This document shows positions 15,001 through 62,187 of a DNA stretch of 64,000 nucleotides, one piece after another. The position numbers and the translations under genes were made by a program. The number at the start of each line of letters is the position of its first letter. Within the stretch, counting starts at the first letter, position 1. Under the pieces are notes generated by a model that made no database searches, was not told the DNA's origin, and saw only the letters and a program-made list of their open reading frames with translations. The DNA comes from Eledone cirrhosa. Lineage: Eukaryota. The DNA lies in NCBI GenBank assembly GCA_964016885.1, contig OZ024740.1:8866001-8930000 (forward strand), in the 5' to 3' direction.

Positions 15001-15836
15001 CCCGATTGGTATATCAGTTTCGATTGGCATGTCAGTTTCTATTGGTATATCAGTCTCGATTGATATATCAGTTTCAATTAGTATGTCAGTTTCTATTGGT
15101 ATGTCAGTTTCGATTAGTATATCAGTTTCTGTTGGTATATCAGTTTCGATTGGTATGTCTGTTTCTATTGGTATATCAGTTTCGATTGGTATATCAGTTT
15201 CGATTGGTATATAAGTTTCGATTGGTATGTCAGTTTCTATTGGTATGTCAGTTTCTATTGGTATATTGATTTCGATTGGTAGGTCAGTTTCTATTGGTAT
15301 GTCAGTTTCAATTTGTATGTCAGTTTCTATTGGTATGTCAGTTTCTATTGATATATCAGTTTCTATTTGTATGTCAGTTTCGATTGGTATGTCAGTTTCT
15401 ATTGGTATATCAGTTTCGATTGGTAAGTTAGTTTCTATTGTTATGTCAGTTTCGATTAGTATATCACTTTCTATTGGCATGTCAGTTTCGATTGGTATGT
15501 CAGTTTCGATTGGTTTGTCAGTTTCTATTGGTATATGAGTTTCGATTGGTATGTCAGTTTTGATTGGTATGTCAGTTTCTATTATTATATCAGTTTCTAT
15601 TGGTATGTGAGTTTAAATTGGTATATCAGTTTCTATTGGTATATCAGTTCCGATTGGTATATCAGTTTCGATTGGTATATCAGTTTCTATTGGTATATCA
15701 GTTCCGATTGGTATATCAGTTTCAATTGGTATGTCAGTTTCTATTGGTATATCAGTTTCGATTGATATATCAGTTTCGATTAGTATGTCAGTTTCTATTG
15801 GTATGTCAGTTTCGATTAGTATATCAGTTTCTATTG
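1..15836. repeat. 18-bp tandem satellite, consensus ATTGGTATRTCAGTTTCK (block 1; continues beyond window start)
   Basis: Uninterrupted head-to-tail 18-mers read directly; occasional 17-bp variant monomers shift the frame; ends at ...CAGTTTCTATTG (15836). Confidence 0.99.
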
Positions 15837-15850
15837 TATCTCTCTCAGTT

Positions 15851-15878
15851 ATTTACCATGCGACCCTCAGTTCCTACC
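15851..15878 (+). repeat. Target-site duplication, left copy (ATTTACCATGCGACCCTCAGTTCCTACC)
   Basis: Identical 28-mer at 17753-17780, immediately after the nested copy's tail. Confidence 0.9.
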
Positions 15879-16086
15879 CCCCCCCCCCTCTCTATGCACT
15901 TCTTTAAGGCTTACTACCCTGTCTTTAACCTAATTCATTCAATCTGAAAATATTGAAGAGATAAGACACTTTCCCATTCTTCTCTGCTAAAATGTACCAC
16001 TAGAGCTGATTCAAATTTTCCCAGCCAGCCATCCATCTAATCTACGAAGGTATTTTAGCCTACATATTGTCGTTAATATTATGATG

Positions 16087-16136
16087 TTCCCTGCTGTATT
16101 AGCGTTAAATTTTCCCTGCTGTATTAGCGATAAATT
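16087..16136 (+). repeat. 25-bp tandem duplication TTCCCTGCTGTATTAGCG(T/A)TAAATT x2
   Basis: Two adjacent copies with one mismatch inside the foreign segment. Confidence 0.85.
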
Positions 16137-16219
16137 TTCGAGGGTTTCTCTTAGTAGCTTTTTTCATGACGTTATTATTGTTAATTTTACTGATGTAGTA
16201 TTAACTTGGATATTTACGG

Positions 16220-17459
16220 GGCATTTGTCGACCTTGAGAAAGCCTTTGACAGAGTTCCACGTGCAGTAATCTGGTGGGCTCTTAGAAAACTAGGAGTAGA
16301 TGAATGGCTTGTGAAAGCGGTACAAGCCATGTATAGGGGAGCAGTCAGCAAAGTTAGGATTGGCAATGAGTATAGCGAGGAATTTAGCGTACAGGTTGGG
16401 GTCCACCAGGGCTCTGTTCTTAGCCCTCTCCTGTTCATCATAGTCCTGCAGGCAATAACGGAGGAGTTTAAGACCGGATGCCCATGGGAACTCCTGTATG
16501 CTGATGACCTCGCACTCATAGCTGAATCTATGGTAGAACTAGAGAATAAATTCCAAACCTGGAAGCAGGGACTAGAGAGAAAGGGCCTCAAAGTCAACAT
16601 GACAAAGACTAAGGTCCTTATAAGTAGACGAGAAAACAGAACCCAGATCCCCTCAGGGAAATGGCCTTGCTCAGTATGTAGGAAAGGTGTAGGTAGGAAC
16701 TCCATTCTCTGCCCCAAATGCAAACAATGGGTACACAAGAGATGTAGCGGGATCTCAGGAAGCTTAATTAAGAATGTAGGATTCACATGCAGCAGCTGTG
16801 CTGAAACAGCAAGCAAACAGCCACAGGAAACAAGTACCACCAATCTCTGGGAGGGCCCTGTAGAAACAGTAGACAGCTTCTGCTACCTAGGTGACCGAAT
16901 TAGCAACGGAGGTGGGTGCTCAGAAAGTACAATAACTAGGGTAAGAACGGGATGGAAGAAGTTTAGGGAACTACTACCACTGCTAGCTGCAAAAGGCTTC
17001 TCCCTCAGAATGAAAGGCAGACTGTATGATGCGTGTATCCGAACAGCGATGTTGCATGGTAGTGAGACCTGGGCGCTGAAGGTGGAAGACTTACGTAGAT
17101 TAGAGAGAAACGAAGCCTGCATGCTCCGATGGATGTGTAACAGTAATATACGTGAACGACAAAGCATAAATGAATTGAGAGAGAGACTGAGCATAAGAGG
17201 AATCAAATGCTGCGTGCAGGAGAGGCGGTTACGCTGGTATGGACATGTGATGCGTATGAAGGATGACAGCTGCATAAAAAGGTGCAGAGCACTAGAAGTT
17301 GATGGAAACCGCGGAGTGGGGAGACCCAAGATGACTTGGGATGAGGTGATAAAAGCCGACCTTACCCAACTACACCTCTCAAAGTCAATGACACACGACC
17401 GTGACTTCTGGCGTCACGCAGTAATACAGGGTACCCGACCTCCCATGGGTACATGCTGA
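16220..17459 (+). pseudogene. 5'-truncated RT/PHD/C-terminal part of family A ORF (open frame, no endonuclease)
   Basis: Translation AFVDLEKAFDRV...LLYADDL...TRPPMGTC* is identical to the C-terminal ~412 aa of 18024-21143; the track's start at 16206 is a TTG in the foreign flank. Confidence 0.92.
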
Positions 17460-17752
17460 AGCATATAAACAATATGCCCCCCCCCCCCCACCGCAAGGTG
17501 GTCGTGGAGGTGCCACGGCAAAAAAGCACCCAGCCCACACTGTAAAGTGGACGTGTAGGCGCCACGAAAAAGCACCCAGCACTCACTGTAAATGAGGTTG
17601 GTGTTAGGAAGGGCATCCAGCTGTGGAAATCAAGCCAGATCAGTTCCTGTATGAGCAAGGCATGGTCAGCCGACCAGACACTGCCCACAACAGGACAACC
17701 CGTCTAACTCATGCTAGCGTGGAAGAACGGACGTAAAACGGTGATGATGATG

Positions 17753-17780
17753 ATTTACCATGCGACCCTCAGTTCCTACC
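17753..17780 (+). repeat. Target-site duplication, right copy
   Basis: Identical to 15851-15878. Confidence 0.9.
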
Positions 17781-18023
17781 TCACAATTTCCCTCCCCCCC
17801 ACCCCCACACACCACCATAGTCTATTCGACCAATCAAACCTAGCATGCCATTTCCACTGCTGCTGCTGCTACTACCTGCCTAACTAACTCTCTCCTCCTC
17901 TGGCGCATCCCAACACACCCTGCCATTACCCCACCACCACTGTCCTTCTAGCCCTCAATTTTCCCACCGTTATGGATGGATGAGCTGGGAATACACGAGC
18001 AACTCTGAATCAATAGATGAAAT

Positions 18024-21000
18024 ATGAATCTGCGAGCTACCAAGCACCCACGTGAAGTGCCAACCCAGAGACCCTCCCCTACGAGTGTCGACAAATGCCC
18101 AAAACTCCGAGTTGGTACCATCAATGTAGGCTCAATGAAAGGAAGAGCAGGAGAAATCGTAGAAATGCTAGAGCGAAAGGAAGTTGATGTATGCTGTGTG
18201 CAAGAGACTAGATGGAGAGGAGGGTCTGCTAGAGTCCTTGTAGGAAAAAGCCAGTGCTACAAATTTTTCTGGGTGGGAAATGACGATGGGATGGGTGGTG
18301 TAGGTATACTATTAGCTGACAAGTGGGTAGATAAAGTAATCTCAGTGTACAGGGTAAATGCAAGAATCATTAAACTCAGACTAGTCCTGAATAAGACAAT
18401 TACCACAATAATATCAGCTTACGCACCCCAATCGGGGCTGCCAGACGAACTTAAGGATAGGTTTTACGAGTCCCTAATACACACTACTGCTCTAACAGAC
18501 GACAAGGACTTCCTAATCATTGCAGGAGATTTTAACGGACACGTAGGTAAACACTGCGACGGCTTCAATAGAGTACATGGAGGCCATGGAGTTGGCACAA
18601 GGAATGAGGAAGGATTCAGACTTCTAGAATTCTGCGACGCCAATGACATGTCGATATGTAACACAAACTTTAAAAAACCCGACAACCACCTGATCACCTA
18701 TAGATCAGGGGAGCACTCTAGTCAGTTAGATTTTATCCTCATCAGAGGACGTGACAGATGGACGGTCGTAAACACAAAAGCCTTCCCTAGTGAGGAATGT
18801 ACATCCCAACATAGCTTAGTTGTCAGCGACCTCACGGTCAGAACTAGACGAGCCCTGAAACAGAGGCCAACCTGGAGAAGAAAGATCTGGAAGCTGAAAG
18901 TCCCCTCAACCAGTAACAGATTTAAAGATATTTTACTCAACGCCTACGACAGTAAAGAAGAACAGATAGAGACATTTAACGTAGAAGAGAACTGGGAGTT
19001 TCTAAAAAATAACTTACTAGAGGCGACGGATGAGGTTTGTGGCTGGAGTAAGACCTCAAGCAGGAGGAGAGTGACTTGGTGGTGGAACAATAAGGTAGAT
19101 GAAGCAGTCAAGGCCAAGAGACAGGCATGGAAAGAATGGAAGAACGGGGGGAGCAGGGTACATTACATAGAGACCAAGAGGGAAGCTAGGCGACAAGTAT
19201 ACTTAGCTAGGAGGGAAGCAGAGGATAGAAAATTCAAGCATGTTTTACAACGTGAGGACCAGAAACAGGAGGTATTCAAGATTGCGAGGCAGTGTGTCAG
19301 AGATAGTTGTGATGTCATTGGAGAGAAGTGTATCCGGAATGATAAAGGTGAGCTTGCCCTCACAAGTGCTGAGAAGAAAGATGCATGGAAGAGTCATTAT
19401 GATAGATTACTAAATGAGGAGAATGCATGGGAAGAAGAGACCCTACCCCACGTAGACCCTATAGAGGGACCAGCAGTACAAGTCAGCGGCAGCGTAGTAA
19501 GTAAGGCAATCAGAGATATGAAGATAGGGAAGGCAACCGGTCCATCGGGTATAGCTGCCGAGATGCTGAAGGCATCTGGGTCTGTAGGTCACACTATAAC
19601 CACACGTATCGTTAACCAGGTAATACTAGAGGGGGCCATACCAAAAGATTGGTGCAGTAGCATCATTGTCAACTGCTACAAAGGTAAAGGCGATGCACTA
19701 GATAGAGGAAACTATAGAGGTATAAAGTTGATGGACCAGGTCATGAAAGTAACAGAAAGAGTTATAGCACAGCTGATTAGGGACCGGGTGAATATAGACG
19801 AGATGCAATTTGGGTTTGTACCAGGGAAAGGCACCACTGATGCGCTCTTCCTTGTGAGGCAATTACAGGAAAAGTACCTAGCTAAAAGTAAGCCACTCTA
19901 CTTGGCATTTGTCGACCTTGAGAAAGCCTTTGACAGAGTTCCACGTGCAGTAATCTGGTGGGCTCTTAGAAAACTAGGAGTAGATGAATGGCTTGTGAAA
20001 GCGGTACAAGCCATGTATAGGGGAGCAGTCAGCAAAGTTAGGATTGGCAATGAGTATAGCGAGGAATTTAGCGTACAGGTTGGGGTCCACCAGGGCTCTG
20101 TTCTTAGCCCTCTCCTGTTCATCATAGTCCTGCAGGCAATAACGGAGGAGTTTAAGACCGGATGCCCATGGGAACTCCTGTATGCTGATGACCTCGCACT
20201 CATAGCTGAATCTATGGTAGAACTAGAGAATAAATTCCAAACCTGGAAGCAGGGACTAGAGAGAAAGGGCCTCAAAGTCAACATGACAAAGACTAAGGTC
20301 CTTATAAGTAGACGAGAAAACAGAACCCAGATCCCCTCAGGGAAATGGCCTTGCTCAGTATGTAGGAAAGGTGTAGGTAGGAACTCCATTCTTTGCCCCA
20401 AATGCAAACAATGGGTACACAAGAGATGTAGCGGGATCTCAGGAAGCTTAATTAAGAATGTAGGATTCACATGCAGCAGCTGTGCTGAAACAGCAAGCAA
20501 ACAGCCACAGGAAACAAGTACCACCAATCTCTGGGAGGGCCCTGTAGAAACAGTAGACAGCTTCTGCTACCTAGGTGACCGAATTAGCAACGGAGGTGGG
20601 TGCTCAGAAAGTACAATAACTAGGGTAAGAACGGGATGGAAGAAGTTTAGGGAACTACTACCACTGCTAGCTGCAAAAGGCTTCTCCCTCAGAATGAAAG
20701 GCAGACTGTATGATGCGTGTATCCGAACAGCGATGTTGCATGGTAGTGAGACCTGGGCGCTGAAGGTGGAAGACCTACGTAGATTAGAGAGAAACGAAGC
20801 CTGCATGCTCCGATGGATGTGTAACAGTAATATACGTGAACGACAAAGCATAAATGAATTGAGAGAGAGACTGAGCATAAGAGGAATCAAATGCTGCGTG
20901 CAGGAGAGGCGGTTACGCTGGTATGGACATGTGATGCGTATGAAGGATGACAGCTGCATAAAAAGGTGCAGAGCACTAGAAGTTGATGGAAACCGCGGAG

Positions 21001-21143
21001 TGGGGAGACCCAAGATGACTTGGGATGAGGTGATAAAAGCCGACCTTACCCAACTACACCTCTCAAAGTCAATGACACACGACCGTGACTTCTGGCGTCA
21101 CGCAGTAATACAGGGTACCCGACCTCCCATGGGTACATGCTGA
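18024..21143 (+). CDS. Family A polyprotein: APE-type endonuclease + reverse transcriptase with embedded PHD finger (1039 aa, intact)
   Basis: APE motifs VGTINVG, CVQETRW, SAYAPQ, GDFNGH, QLDFIL, SQH; RT motifs NYRGIKL, QFGF, FVDLEKAFDRV, GVHQGSVLSPLLF, YADD; RTE-like C-terminus RLRWYGHV...GRPK.TW; single-ORF layout and tandem-repeat tail fit the RTE clade. Confidence 0.96.
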   Translation: MNLRATKHPREVPTQRPSPTSVDKCPKLRVGTINVGSMKGRAGEIVEMLERKEVDVCCVQETRWRGGSARVLVGKSQCYKFFWVGNDDGMGGVGILLADKWVDKVISVYRVNARIIKLRLVLNKTITTIISAYAPQSGLPDELKDRFYESLIHTTALTDDKDFLIIAGDFNGHVGKHCDGFNRVHGGHGVGTRNEEGFRLLEFCDANDMSICNTNFKKPDNHLITYRSGEHSSQLDFILIRGRDRWTVVNTKAFPSEECTSQHSLVVSDLTVRTRRALKQRPTWRRKIWKLKVPSTSNRFKDILLNAYDSKEEQIETFNVEENWEFLKNNLLEATDEVCGWSKTSSRRRVTWWWNNKVDEAVKAKRQAWKEWKNGGSRVHYIETKREARRQVYLARREAEDRKFKHVLQREDQKQEVFKIARQCVRDSCDVIGEKCIRNDKGELALTSAEKKDAWKSHYDRLLNEENAWEEETLPHVDPIEGPAVQVSGSVVSKAIRDMKIGKATGPSGIAAEMLKASGSVGHTITTRIVNQVILEGAIPKDWCSSIIVNCYKGKGDALDRGNYRGIKLMDQVMKVTERVIAQLIRDRVNIDEMQFGFVPGKGTTDALFLVRQLQEKYLAKSKPLYLAFVDLEKAFDRVPRAVIWWALRKLGVDEWLVKAVQAMYRGAVSKVRIGNEYSEEFSVQVGVHQGSVLSPLLFIIVLQAITEEFKTGCPWELLYADDLALIAESMVELENKFQTWKQGLERKGLKVNMTKTKVLISRRENRTQIPSGKWPCSVCRKGVGRNSILCPKCKQWVHKRCSGISGSLIKNVGFTCSSCAETASKQPQETSTTNLWEGPVETVDSFCYLGDRISNGGGCSESTITRVRTGWKKFRELLPLLAAKGFSLRMKGRLYDACIRTAMLHGSETWALKVEDLRRLERNEACMLRWMCNSNIRERQSINELRERLSIRGIKCCVQERRLRWYGHVMRMKDDSCIKRCRALEVDGNRGVGRPKMTWDEVIKADLTQLHLSKSMTHDRDFWRHAVIQGTRPPMGTC
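20352..20483 (+). other. PHD-type zinc finger (C4HC3) inside family A RT region
   Basis: CSVC-x10-CPKC-KQWV-H-KR-C-x14-CSSC; W two residues before H and F two before the 7th ligand, as in canonical PHD fingers. Confidence 0.85.
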
Positions 21144-21172
21144 AGCATATAAACAATATGCCCCCCCCCCCC

Positions 21173-21418
21173 CCACCGCAAGGTGGTCGTGGAGGTGCCA
21201 CGGCAAAAAAGCACCCAGCCCACACTGTAAAGTGGACGTGTAGGTGCCACGAAAAAGCACCCAGCACTCACTGTAAATGAGGTTGGTGTTAGGAAGGGCA
21301 TCCAGCTGTAGAAATCAAGCCAGATCAGTTCCTGTATGAGCAAGGCATGGTCAGCCGACCAGACACTGCCCACAACAGGACAACCCGTCTAACCCATGCT
21401 AGCGTGGAAGAACGGACG
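21173..21418 (+). other. Predicted structured 3' UTR of family A (GCAA tetraloop hairpin, two pseudoknot + hairpin modules, terminal stem-loop)
   Basis: Base pairing worked out by hand; compensatory changes versus family B (see findings). Confidence 0.65.
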
Positions 21419-21446
21419 TAAAACGGTGATGATGATGATGATGATG

Positions 21447-21554
21447 ATGTCAGTTTCGATTTGTATGTCAGTTTCTATTGGTATATCAGTTTTGATTGGT
21501 ATATCAGTTTTGATTGGTATATCAGTTTCAATTGGTATGTCAGTTTCGATTAGT
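21447..21554. repeat. 18-bp satellite, exactly 6 monomers (108 bp) between two insertions
   Basis: Starts ATGTCAG, ends GATTAGT; matches ~13156-13263. Confidence 0.97.
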
Positions 21555-21896
21555 CGTCCCGCCACCACCCCCACCCCATCCACACCACCCCGTTCTATGT
21601 AAAGTTATGTTGGTGCCGCGCCATCCAGGCCGAAACAAATGAGATCGTGTAGGTGTCACGACAAAAAAACACACAGTCCACACTGTAATGTGGCCGTGTA
21701 GGCAACACGGTAAAAACCTCCCACACCCACACTGTAAATGTGGTTGGTGTTAGGAAGGGCATCCAACTGTAGAAAACCTGCCTGACAGTCCTATGCGAGC
21801 AAGACAATCACTCTTGCCTCAAGTGGGACTACCCCCGTCCAAACCCATGCAAGCGTGGAACACGGACGTTAAACGTTGATGATGATGATGATGATG
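21555..21896 (+). mobile_element. Family B 3'-UTR-only copy (severely 5'-truncated) with (GAT)n tail
   Basis: Matches 26847-27191 with about three substitutions; inserted at GATTAGT^ATATCAGTTACT with no duplication or deletion (empty site ~13257-13275). Confidence 0.95.
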
Positions 21897-23235
21897 ATAT
21901 CAGTTACTATTGGTATGTCAGTTTCGATTGGTATGTTAGTCCTCGATTTGTATGTCAGTTTCTATTGGTATATCAATTTTGATTGGTATGTCAGTTTCTA
22001 TTGGTATGTCAGTTTCTATTGGTATATCAATTTCGATTGGTATTTCAGTTTCCATTGGTATATCAGTTTTGATTGGTATATCAGTTTCTATTGTTATATC
22101 AGTTTCTATTGGTATGTCAGTTTCGAATGGTATGTCAGTTTCTATTGCTATATCAGTTTCGATTGGTATATCAGTTTCTATTGGTATATCAGTTCCGATT
22201 GGTATATCAGTTTCGATTGGTATATCAGTTTCTATTGGTATATCAGTTCCGATTGGTATATCAGTTTCGATTGGTATGTCAGTTTCTATTGGTATATCAG
22301 TTTCGATTGGCATATCAGTTTTGATTGGTATATCAGTTTTTCGATTGGTATGTCAGTTTCTATTGGTATGTCAGTTTCTATTGGTATGTCAGTTTCGATT
22401 GGTATGTCAGTTTTATTGGTATGTCAATTTCGATTGGTATATCACTTTCGATTGGTATGTCAGTTTCTATTTGTATATCAGTTTCTTTTGTATGTCAGTT
22501 TCGATTGGTACGTCAGTTTCTATTGGTATATCAGTTTTTATTGGTATGTTAGATTCTATTTGTATGTCAGGTCCGATTGGTATGTTAGTCCGCGATTTGT
22601 ACGTCAGTTTCTATTGGTATATCAATTTCGATTGGTATGTCAGTTTCTATTGGTCTGTCAGTTTCTATTGGTATATCAGTTTCGATTGGTATGTCAGTTT
22701 CGATTAGTATATCAGTTTCTATTGATATGTCAGTTTCTATTGGTATATCAATTTCGATTGGTATATCAGTTTCTATTGGTATGTCAGTTTCGATTCGTAT
22801 GTCAGTTTCGATTGGTACATCAATTTCGATTGGTAAGTCAGTTTCGATTTGTATGTCAATTTTGATTGGTATGTCAGTTTCGATTAGTATGTCAGTTTTG
22901 ATAGTTATGTCAGTTTCTATTGGTATATCAGTTTTGATTGGTATATCAGTTTCTATTGGTATATCAGTTCCGATTGGTATGTCAGTTTCGATTGGTATAT
23001 CAGTTTCTATTGGTATATCAGTTTCGATTGATATACCAGTTTCGATTAGTCTGTCAGTTTCTATTCGTATGTCAGTTTCGATTAGTATATCAGTTTCTAT
23101 TGGTATGCCAGTTTCGATTGGTATGTCAGTTTCTATTGGTATATCAATTTCGATTGGTATATCAGCTTCGATTGGTATATCAGTTTCGATTGGTATGTCA
23201 GTTTATATTGGTATGTCAGTTTCTATTGGTATGTC
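21897..23235. repeat. 18-bp satellite (block 3)
   Basis: Tandem 18-mers continuing the variant order of block 1. Confidence 0.99.
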
Positions 23236-23356
23236 TGTATTTTTGTTATCTATTTAAGGTTTAAATACGGTGTTTTTGTCGTATTGAATAGAACAAATCT
23301 TGCAGTTTTGCTTTTTGTTAAATCGCTTGTTAAACATTCATAACCTTCCAGCTAGC

Positions 23357-23416
23357 TACCCCACACCCCTCCCTCCCGCCCCCACACGCCACCATACTTA
23401 ATACGTGGACCAATCA
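23357..23416 (+). promoter_or_regulatory. Candidate internal promoter block (C-rich/GC-box-like + GACCAATCA CCAAT box) shared by A and B 5' UTRs
   Basis: CTACC.CACA...CCCTCCC...CCCCACAC.CCACCATA...GACCAATCA recurs at ~17776-17836 in family A although the rest of the UTRs do not align by eye; promoter function is inferred. Confidence 0.45.
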
Positions 23417-23534
23417 TAAGCCAGAGCCCCCCCCCCCCCCGCATCACCACCATTATTATAAGCCAGAGCCCCCCACCCCCACCCCCACGCATCACCATTA
23501 TTATTATTACGCGGACCAAATCATAAGCCAGAGG
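23407..23534 (+). repeat. Imperfect tandem repeats in family B 5' UTR (ATAAGCCAGAG x3 with poly-C and GCATCACCA)
   Basis: ATAAGCCAGAG at 23416, 23458, 23523; GGACCAA(A)TC precedes the first and third. Confidence 0.8.
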
Positions 23535-23579
23535 CCTATACTATCGCTTGCCCGGTTGCCTTCGATATATGATGGATGG

Positions 23580-26500
23580 ATGGATGGACGGACGGACTGC
23601 GGAAACCTGGAGAGTGGAAGGGAGAGAAAAATCTGGACGCCCAGAGCGAAAATGCCAAAGTTAAAGTCAAATTCACCTCGTGGACGAGAATGCGAGCACT
23701 CCTCTTTGTTTCGTCCGCGGATGGCTAACATAACCCTATCTCCTCCCGCCCCCCACCACCCCCACCCTCCAAACGCAACCCAAAACTTCAGAGTTGGTAC
23801 CATAAATGTAGGCACCCTAAAGGGTCGCGCTAACGAGGTTGTAGAAATGCTTGAACGTAAGGAGGTCGATGTTTGTTGTATTCAAGAGACCAGGTGGAGG
23901 GGTGGGTCTGCTAGATTCATTGAGGGTAAAAAACGATGTTATAAGCTTTTCTGGGTGGGAAACGACGATGGGCTGGGTGGAGTAGGAATCATGGTAGCAG
24001 AAAAGTGGGCAGATAAGATAATAGACGTAAATAGAGTGAACGACAGAATAATTAAAATAAGACTTGTCCTCAATAGAACTACGGTGACAGTAATATCTGC
24101 GTACGCACCCCAATCCGGACTGCCCGGCACTATAAAAGATAGATTCTATGAGACACTGTTGCTAACTACCTCCCAAATATCTGACAGTGACTATATAATT
24201 ATTGCAGGCGACCTAAATGGTCACGTTGGACAACATTGTGACGGCTACGACGAAATCCATGGAGGCTATGGGTTTGGTACTAGAAATGAGGAAGGCTCCA
24301 GAATTCTGGAATACTGTGATGCAAATAACCTAACTATCTGTAACACTAACTTCAAAAAACGTGACAATCACCTGATTACCTATAGATCCGGGGATCACAC
24401 AAGCCAGGTAGATTATATCCTTACCAGAAGACGTGACAGAGTGTCTGTTGTAAACACTAAATCCCTCCCCCATGAAGAATGCACCTCCCAACATAGACTG
24501 ATAATTAGCGACCTCACAGTCAGGACGAGACGTACCCGACAGCAGAAGAGGACTATCCTCAGGAGGAAAATATGGAAACTAAAGGACCCCACAGCCAGAA
24601 ATAAATTTCAAAGCATATTACTTGATGCTTTCGACAGTAAGGAAGAGCATCTAGAATCGGACAATATAGAGGGACAGTGGAAATTTCTGAAAGCAAACCT
24701 GCTGTTGGCGACAGACGAAGTCTGTGGCTGGAGCAGGCCTGTAGGCAGGAGGAGAGTAACATGGTGGTGGAACAATAGGGTGGAGGGGTCAATTAAGGCC
24801 AAAAAGCAGGCTTGGAAAGTATGGCGGGATGGGGGAAGTAGAGTAGACTATCAAGTGGCCAGGAGGGAAGCTAGGAGAGAAGTGTACTTAGCAAGAAGGG
24901 AAGCTGAGGAAAGAAAGTTCAAGCATGTTCTACAACGCGATGACCAAAAACGTGAGGTGTTCAGGATTGCCAGGCAATGCGTCAAGGAAAACCGTGATAT
25001 TGTCGGGGAGAAGTGTGTACTTAACGATGATGGCATACTTGCCATCACCGACACTGATAAGAAGGTAGCTTGGAAGTGTCACTATGAAAGGCTACTAAAT
25101 GAGGAGAATAAATGGGAGAAAGACAGTCTCCCCCATATCGACCCGATAGAGGGACCAGCAGTGTTAGTCGAGGGGAGTATAATAAGTAAGGCAATCAAGG
25201 ATATGAAGACTGGTAAGGCGGCTGGGCCTTCGGAAATAGTTGCTGAGATGCTGAAGGCATCTGGCACGGTGGGACACACCATGGTCACCCGCATAGTTAA
25301 CCAAGTCGTACAGAATGGGGTTGTTCCGAAGGACTGGCATAGCAGCATCATCGTTAACTGTTATAAGGGTAAAGGAGATGCCCTAGATAGGAGTAACTAT
25401 AGAGGCATTAAATTAATCGACCAGGTCATGAAGGTCACGGAAAAAGTAATAGCGCAACTAATCAGAGAGAGAATTGATCTAGATGAAATGCAGTTCGGGT
25501 TTGTGTCAGGCAAAAGCACCACAGACGCTCTTTTCATAGTACGACAACTACAGGAGAAGTACCTAGCTAAAGGTAAACCCCTCTACTTAGCTTTTGTCGA
25601 CCTGGAGAAAGCCTTCGACAGAGTCCCCCGCTCCATTATCTGGTGGGCTCTTAGAAAACTAGGCGTTGACGAATGGCTTGTGAGGGCTATACAAGCCATG
25701 TATAAAGAAACAGTCAGCAAGGTTAGAATTAACAACGAATATAGTGAAGAGTTTAGCGTAAAAGTTGGCATCCATCAGGGCTCTGTTCTCAGCCCCCTAC
25801 TATTTATTATTGCCCTTCAGGCTATAACAGAGGAGTTCAAGACAGGCTGCCCATGGGAACTCCTATACGCAGACGACCTGACACTCATAGCGGAATCAAT
25901 GGCCGAGCTAGAGAAGAAATTCCAAACATGGAAGCACGGCCTAGAGTCAAAAGGACTTAAAATTAACCTGGCTAAGACCAAAGTTCTAGTTTGTAGGAAA
26001 GAAAACAAGGCGGCGGTCCCTTCTGGGAAATGGTCGTGCTCGGTATGTAGGAAAGGCGTAGGTAGAAACTCCATCTTATGTCCTAAATGCAAAGTATGGG
26101 TGCATAAAAGATGTAGTGGGATCACAGGTAAGCTAACTAAGAACATAGACTTTACATGTGGCCGGTGTTCTGGTGCAATAAGTAGCAGCAAGTGCCCACA
26201 AAATACTAGCTCTTTCAATTGCGCAGAGGGTTCTATAGAAATAGTGGACAGCTTCCGTTACCTGGGCGATAAAATCAGCAGTGGGGGAGGGTGCTCTGAA
26301 AGTACTATAGCTAGAGTCAGAACTGGTTGGAAAAAGTTCAGAGAGCTTATACCACTATTAGCTGCTAAAGGGTTCTCCCTAAAAATGAAAGGCAGGTTGT
26401 ACGATGCCTGCATACGAACAGCAATGTTGCATGGTAGTGAGACCTGGGCATTGTGTGCAGAGGATATACGCAGACTAGAGAGGAACGAAGCTTGCATGCT

Positions 26501-26834
26501 CCGCTGGATGTGTAACAGTAATATACGTGAACGGCAAAGCATAAACGAACTAAGGAAAAAATTAGAGATAAGAGGGATCAGATGTTATTTACTCGAGAGA
26601 AGGCTGCGTTGGTATGGACACGTGATGCGCATGAAAGTCGATAGCTGTATTACAAAGTGCAGGGCAATAAAGATAGACGGTAGCCGCGGAATAGGCAGAC
26701 CTAGAAAAACATGGGATGAGCTGATAAACTCCGACCTCACACACTTACACCTCTCCAAGACAATGTCACTGGACCGTGACCTTTGGCGGTACTCAGTAAC
26801 AGAGAAGACCCGCCTTGCCAGTAGGCATCTCTAA
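23580..26834 (+). CDS. Family B polyprotein: APE-type endonuclease + reverse transcriptase with embedded PHD finger (intact; start uncertain, first in-frame ATG 23580, frame open from 23556)
   Basis: Same APE (VGTINVG, CIQETRW, SAYAPQ, GDLNGH, QVDYIL, SQH) and RT (NYRGIKL, QFGF, GIHQGSVLSPLLF, YADD) motifs; colinear with family A but clearly diverged. Confidence 0.95.
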   Translation: MDGRTDCGNLESGRERKIWTPRAKMPKLKSNSPRGRECEHSSLFRPRMANITLSPPAPHHPHPPNATQNFRVGTINVGTLKGRANEVVEMLERKEVDVCCIQETRWRGGSARFIEGKKRCYKLFWVGNDDGLGGVGIMVAEKWADKIIDVNRVNDRIIKIRLVLNRTTVTVISAYAPQSGLPGTIKDRFYETLLLTTSQISDSDYIIIAGDLNGHVGQHCDGYDEIHGGYGFGTRNEEGSRILEYCDANNLTICNTNFKKRDNHLITYRSGDHTSQVDYILTRRRDRVSVVNTKSLPHEECTSQHRLIISDLTVRTRRTRQQKRTILRRKIWKLKDPTARNKFQSILLDAFDSKEEHLESDNIEGQWKFLKANLLLATDEVCGWSRPVGRRRVTWWWNNRVEGSIKAKKQAWKVWRDGGSRVDYQVARREARREVYLARREAEERKFKHVLQRDDQKREVFRIARQCVKENRDIVGEKCVLNDDGILAITDTDKKVAWKCHYERLLNEENKWEKDSLPHIDPIEGPAVLVEGSIISKAIKDMKTGKAAGPSEIVAEMLKASGTVGHTMVTRIVNQVVQNGVVPKDWHSSIIVNCYKGKGDALDRSNYRGIKLIDQVMKVTEKVIAQLIRERIDLDEMQFGFVSGKSTTDALFIVRQLQEKYLAKGKPLYLAFVDLEKAFDRVPRSIIWWALRKLGVDEWLVRAIQAMYKETVSKVRINNEYSEEFSVKVGIHQGSVLSPLLFIIALQAITEEFKTGCPWELLYADDLTLIAESMAELEKKFQTWKHGLESKGLKINLAKTKVLVCRKENKAAVPSGKWSCSVCRKGVGRNSILCPKCKVWVHKRCSGITGKLTKNIDFTCGRCSGAISSSKCPQNTSSFNCAEGSIEIVDSFRYLGDKISSGGGCSESTIARVRTGWKKFRELIPLLAAKGFSLKMKGRLYDACIRTAMLHGSETWALCAEDIRRLERNEACMLRWMCNSNIRERQSINELRKKLEIRGIRCYLLERRLRWYGHVMRMKVDSCITKCRAIKIDGSRGIGRPRKTWDELINSDLTHLHLSKTMSLDRDLWRYSVTEKTRLASRHL
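26037..26168 (+). other. PHD-type zinc finger (C4HC3) inside family B RT region
   Basis: CSVC-x10-CPKC-KVWV-H-KR-C-x14-CGRC; all eight ligands conserved with family A. Confidence 0.85.
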
Positions 26835-27191
26835 CAAACTACACCCCGTCCCGCCACCACCCCCACCCCATCCACACCACCCCGTTCTATGTAAAGTTAT
26901 GTTGGTGCCGCGCCATCCAGGCCGAAACAAATGAGATCGTGTAGGTGTCACGACAAAAAAACACACAGTCCACGCTGTAATGTGGCCGTGTAGGCAACAC
27001 GGTAAAAACCTCCCAGACCCACACTGTAAATGTGGTTGGTGTTAGGAAGGGCATCCAACTGTAGAAAACCTGCCAGACAGTCCTATGCGAGCAAGACAAT
27101 CACTCTTGCCTCAAGTGGGACTACCCCCGTCCAAACCCATGCAAGCGTGGAACACGGACGTTAAACGTTGATGATGATGATGATGATGATG

Positions 27192-30100
27192 ATGTCACTT
27201 TCAATTGGTATATCAGTTTCGATTGATATGTCAGTTTTATTGGTATGTCAATTTCGATTGGTATATCAGTTCCGATTGGTATATCAGTTTCGATTGGTAT
27301 ATCAGTTTCTATTGGTATATCAGTTCCGATTGGTATATCAGTTTCAATTGGTATGTCAGTTTCTATTGGTATATCAGTTTCGATTGATATATCAGTTTCG
27401 ATTAGTATGTCAGTTTCTATTGGTATGTCAGTTTCTATTGGTATATCAATTTCGATTGGTATTTTAGTTTCGATTTGTATATCAGTTTCGATTCGTATGT
27501 CAATTTCGATTGGAATGTCAGTTTCGATTGGTATATCAGTTTCTATTGCTATATCAGTTTCGATTGGTATATCAGTTTCGATTGGCATATCAGTTTTGAT
27601 TGGTATATCAGTTTTTCGATTGGTATGTCAGTTTCTATTGGTATGTCAGTTTCTATTGGTATGTCAGTTTTATTGGTATGTCAATTTCGATTGGTATATC
27701 ACTTTCGATTGGTATGTCAGTTTCTATTTGTATATCAGTTTCTTTCGTATGTCAGTTTCGATTGGTATGTCAGTTTCTATTGGTATATCAGTTTTTATTG
27801 GTCTGTTAGATTCTATTGGTATGTCAGGTCCGATTGGTATGTTAGTCCGCGATTCGTACGTCAGTTTCTATTGGTATATCAATTTCGATTGGTATGTCAG
27901 TTTCTATTGGTCTGTCAGTTTCTATTGGTATATCAGTTTCGATTGGTATGTCAGTTTCGATTAGTATATCAGTTTCTATTGGTACGTCAGTTTCTATTGG
28001 TATATCAATTTCGATTGGTATATCAGTTTCTATTGGTATGTCAGTTTCGATTCGTATGTCAGTTTCTATTGGTATGTCAGTTTCGATTGGTATATCAGTT
28101 TCGATTGGTATATCAGTTTCTATTGGTATATCAGTTCCGATTGGTATATCAGTTTCAATTGGTATGTCAGTTTCTATTGGTATATCAGTTTCGATTGATA
28201 TATCAGTTTCGATTAGTATGTCAGTTTCTATTGGTATGTCAGTTTCTATTGGTATATCAATTTCGATTGGTATTTTAGTTTCGATTTGTATATCAGTTTC
28301 GATTCGTATGTCAATTTCGATTGGAATGTCAGTTTCGATTGGTATATCAGTTTCTATTGCTATATCAGTTTCGATTGGTATATCAGTTTCGATTGGCATA
28401 TCAGTTTTGATTGGTATATCAGTTTTTCGATTGGTATGTCAGTTTCTATTGGTATGTCAGTTTCTATTGGTATGTCAGTTTCTATTGGTATGTCAGTTTT
28501 ATTGGTATGTCAATTTCGATTGGTATATCACTTTCGATTGGTATGTCAGTTTCTATTTGTATATCAGTTTCTTTCGTATGTCAGTTTCGATTGGTATGTC
28601 AGTTTCTATTGGTATATCAGTTTTTATTGGTCTGTTAGATTCTATTGGTATGTCAGGTCCGATTGGTATGTTAGTCCGCGATTCGTACGTCAGTTTCTAT
28701 TGGTATATCAATTTCGATTGGTATGTCAGTTTCTATTGGTCTGTCAGTTTCTATTGGTATATCAGTTTCGATTGGTATGTCAGTTTCGATTAGTATATCA
28801 GTTTCTATTGGTACGTCAGTTTCTATTGGTATATCAATTTCGATTGGTATATCAGTTTCTATTGGTATGTCAGTTTCGATTCGTATGTCAGTTTCGATTG
28901 GTACATCAGTTTCGATTGGTAAGTCAGTTTCGATTTGTATGTCAATTTTGATTGGTATGTCAGTTTCGATTAGTATGTCAGTTTCTATTGGCATATCAGT
29001 TTCTATTGGTATGTCAGTTTTGATTGGTATGTCAGTTTCTATTGGTATATCAGTTTCGATTGGTATATCAGTTTCTATTGGTATATCAGTTCCGACTGGT
29101 ATATCAGTTTCGATTGGTATGTCAGTTTCGATTAGTATATCAGTTTCTATTGGTATGTCAGTTATGATTGGTATGTCAGTTTCTATTGGTATATCAGTTT
29201 CTATTGGTATATCAGTTTCTATTGGTATGTCAGTTTCTATTGGTATATCAGTTTCTATTGGTATGTCAGTTTCTATTGGTATATCAATTTCGATTGGTAT
29301 GTCAGTTTCGATTTGTATGTCAGTTTCGATTAGTATATCAGTTTCTATTGGTATGTCAGTTTCGATTGGTATGTTAGTCCTCGATGTGTATGTCAGTTTC
29401 TATTGGTATGTCACTTTCAATTGGTATATCAGTTTCGATTGATATGTCAGTTTTATTGGTATGTCAATTTCGATTGGTATATCAGTTTCGATTGGTATGT
29501 CAGTTTCTATTGGTATATCAGTTTTGATTGATATGTCAGTTTTATTGGTATGTCAATTTCGATTGGTATATCAGTTTCGATTGGTATGTCAGTTTCTATT
29601 GGTATATCAGTTTCGATTAGTATGTCAGTTTTGATAGTTATGTCAGTTTCTATTGGTATATCAGTTTTGATTGGTATATCAGTTTCTATTGGTATATCAG
29701 TTCCGATTGGTATGTCAGTTTCGATTGGTATATCAGTTTCTATTGGTATATCAGTTTCGATTGAGATACCAGTTTCGATTAGTATGTCAGTTTCTATTGG
29801 TATGTCAGTTTCGATTAGTATATCAGTTTCTATTGGTATGCCAGTTTCGATTGGTATGTCAGTTTCTATTGGTATATCAGTTTCGATTGGTATATCAGCT
29901 TCGATTGGTATATCAGTTTCGATTGGTATGTCAGTTTATATTGGTATGTCAGTTTCTATTGGTATGTCACTTTCAATTGGTATATCAGTTTCGATTGATA
30001 TGTCAGTTTTATTGGTATGTCAATTTCGATTGGTATATCAGTTTCGATTGGTATGTCAGTCTCTATTGGTATATCAGTTTTTATTTGTATGTCAGTTTCG

Positions 30101-42100: not shown

Positions 42101-43899
42101 ATGTCAGTTTTATTGGTATGTCAATTTCGATTGGTATATCAGTTTCAGGTTGGTACGTCAGTTTCGATTGGTAGGTCAGATTCTATTGGTATACCAGTTT
42201 TGATTGGTATGTCAGTTTCGATTGGTATGTCAGTTTCGATTGGTATGTCAGTTTTTATTGGTATATCAGTTTTGATTGGTATGTCAGTTTCGATTAGTAT
42301 ATCAGTTACTATTTGTATGTCAGTTTCTATTGGTATATCAGTTTCGATTGATATATCAGTTTCGATTGGTATTTCAGTTTCTATTGGTATATCAGTTTCG
42401 ATTGATATATCAGTTTCGATTAGTATGTCAGTTTCTAATGGTATGTCAGTTTCGATTAGTATATCAGTTTTTATTGGTAAGTCAGTTTCGATTGGTATGT
42501 CAGTTTCGATTGGTATGTCAGTTTCTATTGGTATATCAGTTTCGATTGGTATGTCAGTTTCTATTGGTATGTGAGTTTCTATTGGTATATCAGTTTCGAT
42601 TGGTAAGTCAGTTTCTATTGGTATGTGAGTTTCTATTGGTATATCAGTTTCGATTGGTATGTCAGTTTCGAATGGTATGTCAGTTTCGATTGGTATATCA
42701 GTTTCGATTAGTATTTCAGTTTCTATTGGTATATCGGTTGCCATTGGTATATCAGTTTCGATTGGTATTTCAGTTTCTATGGTTATATCAGTTTCTATTT
42801 GTATGTCAGTTTCAATTGGTATGTCAGTTTCTATTGGTATATCAGTTTCGATTGCTATATCAGTTTCGATTAGTTTGTCAGTTTGTATTGGTATGTCAGT
42901 TTTGATTAGTATATCAGTTTCTATTGGTATGTCAGTTTCGATTGGTATGTCAGTTTCGATTGTTATCTCAGTTTCAATTGGTATATCAGTTTTGATTGTT
43001 ATGTAAGTGTTATTGGTATTTCAGTTTCGATTGGTATATCAGTTTCGGTTGGTATGTCAGTTCTGATTGGTATGTCAGTTTCTATTGGTATATCAGTTTC
43101 GATTAGTATGTTGGTTTCTATTGGTATGTCAGTTTCGATTAGTATATCAGTTTCGATTGCTATGTTAGTTCTCTATTTGTATGTCAGTTTCTAATTGTAT
43201 ATCAGTTTCGATTGTTATGTCAGTTTCTATTAGTATGTCAGTTTTTATTGGTATATCGGTTTCCATTGGTATATCAGTTTCCATTGGTATGTCAGTTTCT
43301 ATTGTTATATCAGTTTCGATTGGTATATCAGTTTCTATTGGTATATCAGTTCCGATTGGTATATCAGTTTCGGTTGGTATGTCAGTTTCGATTGGTATGT
43401 CAGTTTCTATTGGTATATCAGTTTCGACTTGTATGTTAGTTTCGATTGGTATGACAGTTTCGATTTGTATGTCAGTTTCGATTGGTATATCACTTTCGAT
43501 TGTTATGTCAGTTTCTATTGGTATATCAGTTTTGACTGGTATGTCACTTTCTATTGGTATATCAGTGTCAATTGATATATCAGTTTTAATTGGTATGTCA
43601 GTTTCGATTGGTATATCAGTTTCGAATGATAAGTCAGTTTCGATTGGTATGTCAGTTTCAATTGGTTTATCAGATTCGATTAGTATGTCAATTTCTATTG
43701 GTATGTCAGTTTCTATTGGTATATCAGCTTCTGTTGGTATGTCAGTTTCTATTGGTATGTCAGTTTTTATTGGTATATCAGTTTCGATTGGTATATCAGT
43801 TTCGATTGGTATGTCAATTCGATTGGTATGTAAGTTTCGATTAGTATATCAGTTTCGAATGGTATGTCAGTTTTGATTGGTATATCAGTTTCGATTGGT
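27192..43899. repeat. 18-bp satellite (block 4), containing a change in variant repertoire near 33.5 kb
   Basis: Tandem 18-mers; marker TTAGTCCTCG/TTAGTCCGCG largely replaced by TTAGTTCTCG from ~33498. Confidence 0.99.
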
Positions 43900-44306
43900 T
43901 GCATGGTGGTGAGACCTGGGCGCTGAAGGTGGAAAACTTACGTAGATTAGAGAGAAACGAAGCCTGCATGCTCTGATGGATGTGTAACAGTAATATACGT
44001 GAACGACAAAGCATAAATGAATTGAGAGAGAAACTGAGCATAAGAGGAATCAAATGCTGTGTGCAGGAGAGGCGGTTGCGCTGGTATGGGCATGCGATGC
44101 GTATGAAGGGTGACAGCTGCATAAAAAGGTGCAGAGTACTAGAAGTTGATGGAAACCGCGGAGTGGGGAGACCCAAGATGACCTGGGATGAGGTGATAAA
44201 AGCCGAACTAACCCAATTACCCCTCTCAAAGACAATGACACACGACCGTGACTTCTGGCGTCACGAAGTAATACAGAGTACACGACCTCCCATGGGTACA
44301 TGCTGA
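43900..44306 (+). pseudogene. C-terminal remnant of family A ORF
   Basis: ...CNSNIRERQSINELREKL...TRPPMGTC*; premature stop upstream. Confidence 0.9.
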
Positions 44307-44590
44307 AGCATATAAACAATATGCCCCCACACCCCCCACCGCAAGGTGGTCGTGGAGGTGCCACGGCAAAAAAGCACCCAGCCCACACTGTAAAGTGGAC
44401 ATGTAGGCGCCACGAAAAAGCACCCAGCACTCACTGTAAATGAGGTTGGTGTTAGGAAGGGCATCCAGCTGTAGAAATCAAGCCAGATCAGTTCCTGTAT
44501 GAGCAAGGCATGGTCAGCCGACCAGACACTGCACACAACAGGACAACCCGTCTAACCCATGCTAGCGTGGAAGAACGGACGTAAAACGGT
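43900..44590 (+). mobile_element. 5'-truncated, decayed family A copy lacking the (GAT)n tail
   Basis: Matches ~20737-21427 with many substitutions; CGA>TGA nonsense at 43974-43976; ends ...GTAAAACGGT directly into satellite. Confidence 0.94.
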
Positions 44591-59500: not shown

Positions 59501-60346
59501 AAGTCAGTTTCGATTGGTATATCAGTCTCGAGTGATATGTCAGTTTCGATTGGTATGTCAGTTTCAATTGGTTTATCAGATTCGATTAGTATGTCAATTT
59601 CTATTGGTATGTCAGTTTCGATTGGTATGTCAGCTTCTATTGGTATATCAGTTTCTGTTGGTATGTCAGTTTCTATTGGTATGTCAGTTTTTATTGGGAT
59701 ATCAGTTTCGATTGGTATATCAGTTTCGATTGGTATGTTAGTTTCGATTGGTATGTCAGTTTCGATTGGTATATCAGTTTCGATTGTTATGTCAGTTTCT
59801 ATTGGTGTAACAGTTTCGACTGGTTTGTTAGTTTCTATTGGTATGTCAGTTTCGATTAGTATATCAGTTTCGATTGGTATGTCAGTTTCGATTAGTGTAT
59901 CAGTTACTATTTGTATGTCAGTTTCTATTGGTATATCAGTTTCGATTGTTATATCAGTTTCGATTGGTATGTCAATTTCGATTGGTATGTCAGTTTCGAT
60001 TGGTATGTAAGTTGCGATTAGTATATCAGTTTCCATTGGAATGTCAGCTTCGATTGGTATGTCAGTTTCTATTGGTTTATCAGATTCGATTAGTATGTCA
60101 ATTTCTTTTGGTATGTCAGTTGCCATTGGTATATCAGTTTTGATTCATATGTCAGTTTCTATTGGTATGTCAGATTCGATTATTATATCAGTTTCCATTG
60201 GAATGTCAGTTTCGATTGGTATGTCAGTTTCTATTGGTTTATCAGATTCGATTAGTATGTCAATTTCTATCGGTATATCAGTTTCTATTGGTATATCAGT
60301 TTCGATTGGTATGTCAGTTTCGATTGGTATGTCAATTTCAATTGGT
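44591..60346. repeat. 18-bp satellite (block 5, more diverged variants)
   Basis: Tandem 18-mers with a higher density of variant monomers and indels. Confidence 0.99.
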
Positions 60347-61680
60347 GCAGTTCGGGTTTGTGTCAGGCAAAAGTACCACAGACGCTCTTTTCATTGTACG
60401 ACAACTACAGGAGAAGTACCTAGCTAAAAGTAAACCCCTATACTTAGCTTTCGTCGACTTGGAGAAAGCCTTCGACAGAGTCCCCCGTTCCATTATCTGG
60501 TGGTCTCTTAGAAAACTAGGTGTTGACGAATGGCTTGTGAGAGCTATACAAGCCATGTATAAAGAAACAGTCAGTAAGGTTAGAATTAACAACGAATATA
60601 GTGAAGAGTTTAGCGTAAAAGTTGGTGTCCATCAGGGCTCTGTTCTTAGCCCCCTACTATTTATTATTGCCCTTCAGGCTATAACAGAGGAGTTCAAGAC
60701 CGGCTGCCCATGGGAACTCCTATACGCAGATGATCTAACGCTCATAGCTGAATCAATGACCGAACTAGAAAAGAAATTCCAAACATGGAAGCACGGCCTA
60801 GAATCAAAAGGCCTTAAAATTAACCTGGCTAAGACTAAAGTTCTAGTTTGTAGGAAAGAAAATAAGGCGGCGGTCCCATCTGGGAAATGGCCATGCTCAG
60901 TGTGTAGGAAAGGCGTAGCTAGAAACTTCATTTTATGTCCCAAATGCAAAGTATGGGTGCATAAAAGATATAGTGGGATCACAGGTAAGCTAACTAAGAA
61001 TATAGATTTTACATGTGGCCGGTGCTCTCTGTGCAATAAGTAGCAGCAAGTGCCCACGAAATACTAGCTCCTTCAACTGCGCAGAGGGTTCTATAGAAAT
61101 AGTGGACAGCTTCCGTTATCTGGGTGACAAAATCAGCAGTGGGGGAGGGTGCTCTGAAAGTACAGTAGCTAGAGTCAGAACTGGATGGAAAAAGTTCAGA
61201 GAGCTTATACCACTATTAGCCGCTAGAGGGTTCTCCCTAAAAATGAAAGGCAGGTTATACGATGCCTGCATACGAACAGCAATGCTGCATGGCAGTGACA
61301 CCTGGGCATTGTGTGCAGAGGATATACGCAGACTAGAGAGGAACGAAGCTTGCATGCTCCGCTGGATGTGCAATAGTAATATACGTGAACGGCAAAGCAT
61401 AAACGAACTAAGGAAAAAATTAGAAATAAGAGGGATCAGATGTTGTTTACTCGAGAGAAGGCTACGTTGGTACGGTCACGTGATGCGCATGAAAGACGAC
61501 AGCTGTATAACAAAGTGCAGGGCAATAAAGATAGACGGTAGCCACGGAGTAGACAGACCCAGAAAAACATGGGACGAGCTGATAAATTCCGACCTCACAC
61601 GCTTACACCTCTCCAAGACAATGTCACTGGACCGAGACCTTTGGCGGTACTCAGTAATAGAGAAGACCCGCCTTACCTAA
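60347..61680 (+). pseudogene. Truncated, frameshifted family B RT/PHD coding remnant
   Basis: QFGFVSGK...YADD... with +1 frameshift near 61028, PHD ligand C>Y (HKRY), C-terminus TRLT*. Confidence 0.92.
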
Positions 61681-61848
61681 ATACAAAGTAAAAACCTACT
61701 ACAGTCAGTAGGCATCTCTATCAAAACACACCCCCGTCCCACCACCTCCACCCCACCCACACCACCCCTTTCAATGTAAAGTTATGTTGGTCCCACAACA
61801 TCCAGGCCAAAACAAATGAGATCGTGTAGGTGTCACGACAAAAAACAC

Positions 61849-62080
61849 ACAGTCCACGCTGTAAATGTGGCCGTGTAGGCAACACGGTAAAAACCTCCCA
61901 GCCCCACACTGTAAATGTGGTTGGTGTTAGGAAGGGCATCCAGCTGTAGAAAACCCGCCAGACAGTCCACGCTGTAATGTGGCCGTGTAGGCAACACGGT
62001 AAAAACCTCCCAGCCCCACACTGTGAATGTGGTTGGTGTTAGGAAGGGCATCCAACTGTAGAAAACCCGCCAGACAGTCC
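61849..62080 (+). repeat. ~112-bp tandem duplication within the 3' UTR, bounded by ACAGTCC
   Basis: Units 61849-61961 and 61962-62073; ACAGTCC at 61849, 61962, 62074; absent from the other two B copies. Confidence 0.92.
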
Positions 62081-62187
62081 TATGCGAGCAAGACAACCAC
62101 TCTTGCCTCAAGTGGGAAAACCCCCGTCCAAACCCATGCAAGCGTGGAACACGGACGCTAAACCTGATGATGATGATGATGATGATG

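Follow-up and report, generated by a model that had tools for sequence, protein, structure and literature searches.

Insertion of RTE-Type LINEs at One Phase of an 18-bp Satellite in Eledone cirrhosa: A Probable Local Target Code Rather than Satellite Targeting

Why would retrotransposons of two different families sit at the same position of a short satellite and all point in the same direction? This question is raised by 64,000 nucleotides of the Eledone cirrhosa genome (the window; C1:8,866,001–8,930,000, where C1 is contig OZ024740.1 of the 3.0-Gb assembly GCA_964016885.1). The window consists of an 18-bp satellite with the unit ATTGGTATRTCAGTTTCK (numbered A1 to K18; plus strand, positions 1–64,000), which is broken by exactly five non-satellite blocks. 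Two families of long interspersed nuclear elements (LINEs), here called A and B, account for every block. The original prediction, made from the window alone, was that these families recognize the satellite.

Our results show that the pattern is real, but they do not support a satellite-targeting RTE system. What the uniform array displays is a strong local target code. The most probable reading is that A and B, two abundant RTE-type LINE families with dispersed copies, go mostly into TA microsatellites, and that they keep to one phase of the satellite because their general Y^ATR target occurs in each unit at just one site per strand. Single-phase, single-strand insertions in one satellite window are no evidence of targeting. 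If any AT were usable, the chance of finding the four scorable window junctions at one site would be about 0.007. At the strand shares measured across the array, however, four sense hits out of four have a 51% chance, so the window pattern alone does not prove targeting.

Insertion Sites in the Satellite Array

The window belongs to one array, placed by the fetched DNA at C1 ~7.23–9.59 Mb (2.4 Mb). The array runs almost entirely in one direction, with 16,536 forward and 117 reverse satellite dimers genome-wide; small satellite pieces may exist outside it. Our junction census covered the surroundings of all 72 listed element ends in the array and a gap-free stretch of 200 kb (748 kb when merged). 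Both families end in short tandem repeats, (TGA)n, rather than poly(A), and 111 such tails were found. We excluded five of them: three were flanked by non-satellite DNA, one was a stutter of the tail, and one had no element. Merging 16 clusters of post-insertion duplicates reduced the remaining 106 junctions to 85 independent events. Our script assigned 69 of these to the sense strand at A7, 11 to the antisense strand at A8′, three to A1, and two to position 8. Read by hand, three of the five odd calls proved to be A7 (one tail variant and two downstream indels). The final counts are therefore 72 sense events at A7, 11 antisense events at A8′, and two at A1.

A7 and A8′ denote a single AT dinucleotide, seen from opposite strands. 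This means that 83 of the 85 junctions use A7–T8 (binomial p ~ 4 × 10−30 against AT availability). The two A1 events likewise fall at T^AT, in one instance within a variant unit reading T^ATAGG. The gap-free 200 kb on its own gives the same picture, with 17 sense and four antisense insertions, all at this AT. A further eleven segments lacked a (TGA)n tail that could be scored and were left out of the census. Three of them are short interspersed nuclear elements (SINEs) with TGAAA-type tails, which likewise resume at ATRTCA.

The original prediction held that insertions share one phase and one orientation. The phase stands in the array as a whole, and mixed phases are hardly seen (2/85, at A1). 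The orientation does not stand: the 11 antisense events are just what the prediction did not expect to be found elsewhere in the satellite. Polarity is nevertheless strong (72:11, or 6.5:1 in favor of sense; p = 4 × 10−12 against 1:1). Among independent array copies matching our exact 3′-end patterns, the sense-to-antisense ratio is 26:7 for A and 28:0 for B1.

The constant 5′ phase seen in the window does not extend to the array either, since the 5′ junctions of 63 sense sites are spread over 17 positions of the monomer, with position 10 the most frequent. Where sense sites overlap by 3–6 bp, 26 of 30 are exact target duplications, an A/G variant included; these lengths may contain chance microhomology with the element. 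Nine of the 11 antisense sites have duplications of 4–8 bp starting with ATAC; the base before the duplication is T in five of them and C in four. A T precedes the duplication at all 52 satellite sense sites scored, in a unit that itself has T there in 97% of cases.

Other elements occur in the array as well. A third family, C (C1:9080347 and 9096281), has a 1025-aa open frame with a PHD finger and is 64–66% identical to A and B; its copies have multiplied along with the array and show the same satellite phase. A SINE of ~330 nt (C1:9005355–9005690 and others) shares its 3′ sequence with families A and C and also sits at this phase. Its head is putatively tRNA-like.

Insertion Sites Outside the Array

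We counted copies across the whole assembly by exact 3′-end patterns on both strands and took orientations from the fetched DNA. The B pattern misses a subfamily, B2, so all B counts are lower bounds. Family A has 10,775 exact 3′ ends (5,300 + 5,475) and family B at least 11,798 of the B1 type (5,830 + 5,968). At least 72 of these 22,573 ends lie in the array (at least 40 of A, counted up to 9.570 Mb, and 32 of B). Hence, 0.32% of the copies occupy 0.079% of the genome, and 99.7% of the exact 3′ ends lie elsewhere. Setting the satellite share against the genomic share thus reveals a 4-fold enrichment (30.5 vs. 7.5 copies per Mb) on top of a dispersed bulk. Other parts of C1 are also denser than the genome: the adjoining 7.2 Mb carry 13.8 copies per Mb and the first 1.86 Mb carry 24.

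Most of the dispersed copies sit in TA repeats. Our sample from outside the array numbered 124 copies, all located in C1 0–17.8 Mb, and we called a 3′ flank TA-rich if its first 22 nt contained six or more TA steps. This was true of 78 copies. In a background of 20 stretches of 10 kb from 11 contigs, it held for 5.9% of random positions and for 18% of those that start with AT. Where the 5′ junction is visible, the 5′ flank is TA-rich in 52 of 90 copies, and both flanks are TA-rich in 40. Because the 5′ flanks are TA-rich too, the TA repeat must predate the insertion; growth of TA flanks out of the (TGA)n tail can therefore be rejected as the main cause. Genome-wide, TATATA occurs within 24 nt of the tail start in 3,637 of 7,061 forward A copies. 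Roughly estimated, TA-type DNA carries ~80 copies per Mb and other DNA ~3, with the satellite in between.

A Model of Target Choice

Read on the element strand, the sense site, the antisense site, and (TA)n are all Y^ATR. Each 18-bp unit offers one site per strand that fits this code, which is the likely reason for the single satellite phase. A position weight matrix built from non-satellite copies only gives the two observed sites 86% (P-1 to P3) or 97% (P-2 to P4) of the total weight over the 36 possible positions. The original prediction had named a general T^AT preference as a caveat, and the dispersed copies alone indeed predict the phase. In these copies, the base at P-1 is mostly T (~74%), with C in 14% (n = 58, P1 being set to A by construction). 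The expected nick at a T/purine step also gains support.

We propose the following mechanism. The apurinic/apyrimidinic endonuclease (APE) domain would nick the priming strand at 5′-YAT/R-3′. The freed end (…AT-3′) could pair with the AU of the (UGA)n RNA tail and serve as the primer for reverse transcription. The 3–6 bp duplications that start with AT would result from another nick, placed a few bases from the first. The sense bias would come from TTT at P-11 to P-9, which is present at the sense site and absent from the antisense site. This matches the published Tn-TA signature of RTE elements, in which a run of three thymines lies some ten nucleotides upstream of the target duplication, itself beginning with A after a T (PMC13295347). 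We consider the T tract a likely source of the bias. The partner SINE weakly supports it: among its forward copies, TTT occurs 12–14 nt upstream in 829, AAA in 450, and TTT at 27–29 nt in 628.

Several observations weigh against this model. The T-tract excess of the SINE over the distal control is only 1.3-fold, and it comes from the SINE rather than from A or B. No T-tract peak appears among 25 dispersed LINE copies whose upstream DNA is of the non-TA kind. Conservation of TTT at 52 satellite sites (50/52 vs. 89.6%) is not significant (p = 0.08), in a test that lacked power. The short matrix predicts a polarity of about 1:1 instead of 72:11, and in a wide matrix (P-3 to P8) the sense site comes no higher than third. 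The nick could lie 2 nt away from where we place it, since AT is common to tail and target. The 4-fold density of the array is not obviously explained by a 4-nt motif, with YATR at 107 per kb in the satellite and 83 per kb in random DNA. Finally, the dispersed sample has a narrow origin.

The array is a useful resource. With at least 85 separate hits in 2.4 Mb of uniform sequence, it is a natural cleavage assay that records, at the level of single bases, nick position, duplication length, and strand bias of an RTE-type endonuclease. The integration machinery of RTEs still needs experimental evaluation (PMC13295347), and the array makes the Tn-TA model testable with two oligonucleotides.

Alternative Explanations

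The sense bias and the additional density could also have a different origin from the phase. A local YATR preference would then set the phase, and polarity and density would follow from chromosome-level factors, such as the direction in which replication forks or transcription cross the array, a chromatin-reading role of the PHD finger, or relaxed selection in heterochromatin. We consider this rather improbable. In its favor, the array is so nearly one-way that effects of satellite strand and of chromosome direction cannot be told apart, the local matrix fails to predict the bias, and the PHD finger, which resembles histone-reading ones, keeps all eight ligands and its Trp in 68 of 68 close relatives. 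Three observations speak against it. Two copies whose 3′ flanks are inverted satellite (C1:7893731 and 8071729) follow the satellite strand and not the chromosome, although they may predate the inversions. The SINE has its position-specific TTT excess genome-wide. It is also not enriched in the array, where 11 of its 16,981 exact heads lie (4.7 vs. 5.7 per Mb).

True satellite targeting of the R1/Tx1 kind, with proteins that recognize the 18-bp unit, is largely refuted and very unlikely. A density 4-fold above the genome mean, 83 of 85 junctions at one dinucleotide, and 28 of 28 independent exact-match B1 copies in sense orientation are what one would expect from such a system. The notion that the families recognize the satellite is not borne out, however, because almost all exact 3′ ends lie elsewhere, mostly in TA microsatellites. 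These are denser in copies (an estimated 80 per Mb) than the array (30 per Mb), and the first 1.86 Mb of C1 come close to the array (24 per Mb). Nor would such a system account for the 11 antisense events or for the fact that family C and the SINE share the phase. That microhomology between tail and target alone places the insertions, with no preference of the nuclease, is still less likely and excluded as the sole cause. A, AT, or ATG is common to tail and target at nearly every junction, and 3′ microhomology has been described for RTEs (PMC6007223). On this basis, the six AT positions of a unit should have received 17, 8, 17, 17, 8, and 17 events; observed were 72, 0, 2, 11, 0, and 0 (chi-square p ~ 4 × 10−46). 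The sites that match the tail best, bottom-strand TGAT (a 4-nt match) and top-strand A9, were used in none of the 85 events and top-strand A1 in two, which agrees with the earlier suggestion that specificity goes beyond the AT of the tail. The least probable explanation is that a few old insertions multiplied with the array and passed on their phase and orientation. Such multiplication did occur, as the 16 duplicate clusters show. It is excluded as the main cause, given that the 85 events left after merging belong to several families, differ in 5′ truncation and flanks, and are 91–100% identical to the window copies, and given that the gap-free sample alone contains 21 insertions (17 sense, four antisense) at the same AT.

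Our preferred reading, a general Y^ATR target read out by a uniform satellite, could be part of something larger. A and B might represent a widespread PHD-finger lineage of RTE-type LINEs that has evolved microsatellite targeting by combining an endonuclease code (TTT, one helical turn, Y^ATR) with chromatin reading by the PHD finger. This is speculative and we think it doubtful. If true, the lineage would be a third target-specific APE lineage beside R1 and Tx1, with the satellite as its best natural readout.

Comparison with Known Elements

A close match in target use is found in Tn-TA RTE LINEs and SINEs (Bov-B, plant RTEs, and Sauria and Au-like SINEs; PMC6007223, PMC13295347). Like A and B, they have a single APE–reverse transcriptase (RT) open reading frame (ORF), a short-repeat tail, and dispersed copies, and they use a T followed by a duplication starting with A. 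Their three T about ten bases upstream have a counterpart at the favored sense site of the satellite. A and B differ from them in a much stronger pull toward (TA)n or purine–pyrimidine alternating repeats (half or more of the copies), in 3–6 bp duplications in the satellite, in the PHD finger inside the ORF, and in a T-tract signal that is weak beyond the satellite.

Lepidopteran RTEs (PMC2887409) and schistosome SR3 (PMC1291365) share a (TGA)n tail, shown for the former in PMC2887409, a single APE–RT ORF of ~1000 aa, and AT-rich sites without tight specificity, a preference that PMC1291365 describes for RTEs. Single-phase insertion is not described in the accessible parts of either paper. RTE-2_OV is similar in having one ORF of ~1100 aa with endonuclease, RT, and zinc finger, a 3′ microsatellite, and a place in the RTE clade (PMC9115989). 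Its finger is called C2H2, a comparison by description only, and the accessible part of that paper gives no target-site analysis.

Sequence-specific APE LINEs of the R1/Tx1 type include SART/TRAS, Waldo, Kibi, and Koshi. Tx1 and R1 are named as the target-specific APE groups in PMC4640811. A and B resemble them in using one position within the repeat unit (83/85 at A7–T8). They differ in orientation (74 sense and 11 antisense among 85), in the share of copies within the repeat (72/22,573, leaving 99.7% outside), and in a target code of ~4 nt to which a weak distal element is added. Celine, an L1-clade LINE of poplar, also accumulates in a repeat-rich domain, with 84% of its copies in centromeric chromatin (PMC11288735) as against 0.32% of A and B in the array.

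Literature searches with limited coverage of subscription papers and Repbase reports turned up neither an RTE specific to a satellite or to (TA)n nor a PHD finger inside an RTE ORF.

Proteins of the Two Families

Families A (1040 aa) and B (1087 aa as translated) each encode one long plus-strand frame with APE, RT, and PHD finger. Their domain matches are Exo_endo_phos and RVT_1, and no separate ORF1 was found. The A frame retains the catalytic APE residues and the YADD motif, and the two proteins are 75% identical. An intact C4HC3 PHD finger lies inside the single ORF of both (20346–20483 in A, residues ~776–821; 26037–26168 in B). In a structure model of the A protein (pLDDT 89.8), it is predicted to sit in a loop that follows the RT core. 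The best fold match of the model among solved structures is L1 ORF2p. Among histone-reading PHD fingers, Pygopus 2 is the most similar (E = 3 × 10−5).

A protein search found 146 relatives at E ≤ 10−50. Among the 120 matches listed, most are unnamed; the named ones are Bombyx, Solanum, Ancylostoma, and fish endonuclease-RTs and CFDP2-named proteins (E = 10−132 to 10−187, compared with 10−32 for L1 ORF2p in a different database). In an RT tree of 109 rows (quick method, midpoint root, without labelled clade references or outgroup), A, B, and C form one branch (support 100) within a group of 79. This group holds all 64 rows that match the PHD pattern; the named Bombyx, Solanum, nematode, and fish proteins are among the other 30 rows. 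In an alignment of 90 chosen proteins, split 68/22 by rank, the eight C4HC3 ligands and a Trp are kept in all 68 close relatives, and the PHD domain is absent from the other 22. The Bombyx endonuclease-RT is 34% identical and has no PHD finger. ADI61822 is probably one of the BmRTE elements. The accessible passages of PMC2887409 do not contain this accession. A scan of metagenome contigs for the flanks of relatives found none.

A and B are probable members of the RTE clade. Their 3′ untranslated regions (UTRs), ~285 nt in A and ~335 nt in B before the tail, are longer than the "unusually short" wording of PMC1291365 implies. RTE-2_OV, assigned to the clade by phylogeny, has a 3′ UTR of ~600 nt (PMC9115989).

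The Five Blocks in the Window

All five insertions are on the plus strand and independent, as claimed at the outset; their 5′ ends and flanks differ. Copies of the same family are 92–99.6% identical, and A and B are ~76% identical to each other. The first block (15837–21446) is a full-length family A element with a (TGA)n tail and the 1040-aa ORF, stop to stop, at 18021–21143. Its 5′ UTR carries a nested, 5′-truncated A copy (16218–17752; 99.6% identical to its host) at a T^ATT site, with a 6-bp duplication, ATTTAC (16212–16217 and 17753–17758). Family A thus also inserts outside the satellite, as had been pointed out. Next come a 3′ fragment of family B with a (TGA)n tail (21555–21896; 99% identical to the full copy; sense, A7) and the full-length B element (23236–27191; open frame with APE, RT, and PHD, 23334–26834), which is flanked by an exact 5-bp duplication, ATGTC (23231–23235 and 27192–27196). 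The fourth block (43900–44590) is an older family A 3′ fragment (96% identity) that has lost its tail, so that its 3′ phase cannot be scored. The last (60347–62187) is a 5′-truncated copy of subfamily B2 (92% identity; sense, A7) with a 112-bp duplication in its 3′ UTR.

The junctions read as described at the outset. All four tailed 3′ junctions resume at ATRTCA (21447, 21897, 27192, and 62188), the one at 27192 reading ATGTCAC and not ATGTCAG. At the 5′ side, the satellite ends in …GT at 21554, 43899, and 60346; it stops 2 nt before that point at 15836 and runs 5 nt past it at 23235. Microhomology of 1–3 nt with the element blurs the exact ends at 43899 and 60346.

The 5′ UTR of the family A copy (15837–16217) is longer than that of a full copy at C1:8642596. 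Once the nested copy is set aside, a 29-nt stretch (15850–15878) recurs ~360 nt away, which suggests 5′ tandem units. The satellite itself contains long internal duplications: within 1–15800, an open-frame pattern is repeated at 8088–9972 and 12934–14752 (offset 4,846 nt), a higher-order repeat.

Elsewhere in the array, short inverted satellite segments lie at C1 ~7.893 and 8.067–8.075 Mb, and at C1:7893742 a B fragment has its 5′ end at the point where the satellite changes direction. An 8.4-kb composite block (C1:7897794–7906240) begins with poly-A, continues with B, then A within a TA repeat, then B2, and ends at the A7 phase. At C1:9108020–9121293, chimeric B2/B1 units stand in tandem, separated by a short degenerate satellite spacer, a local duplication of element and satellite together.

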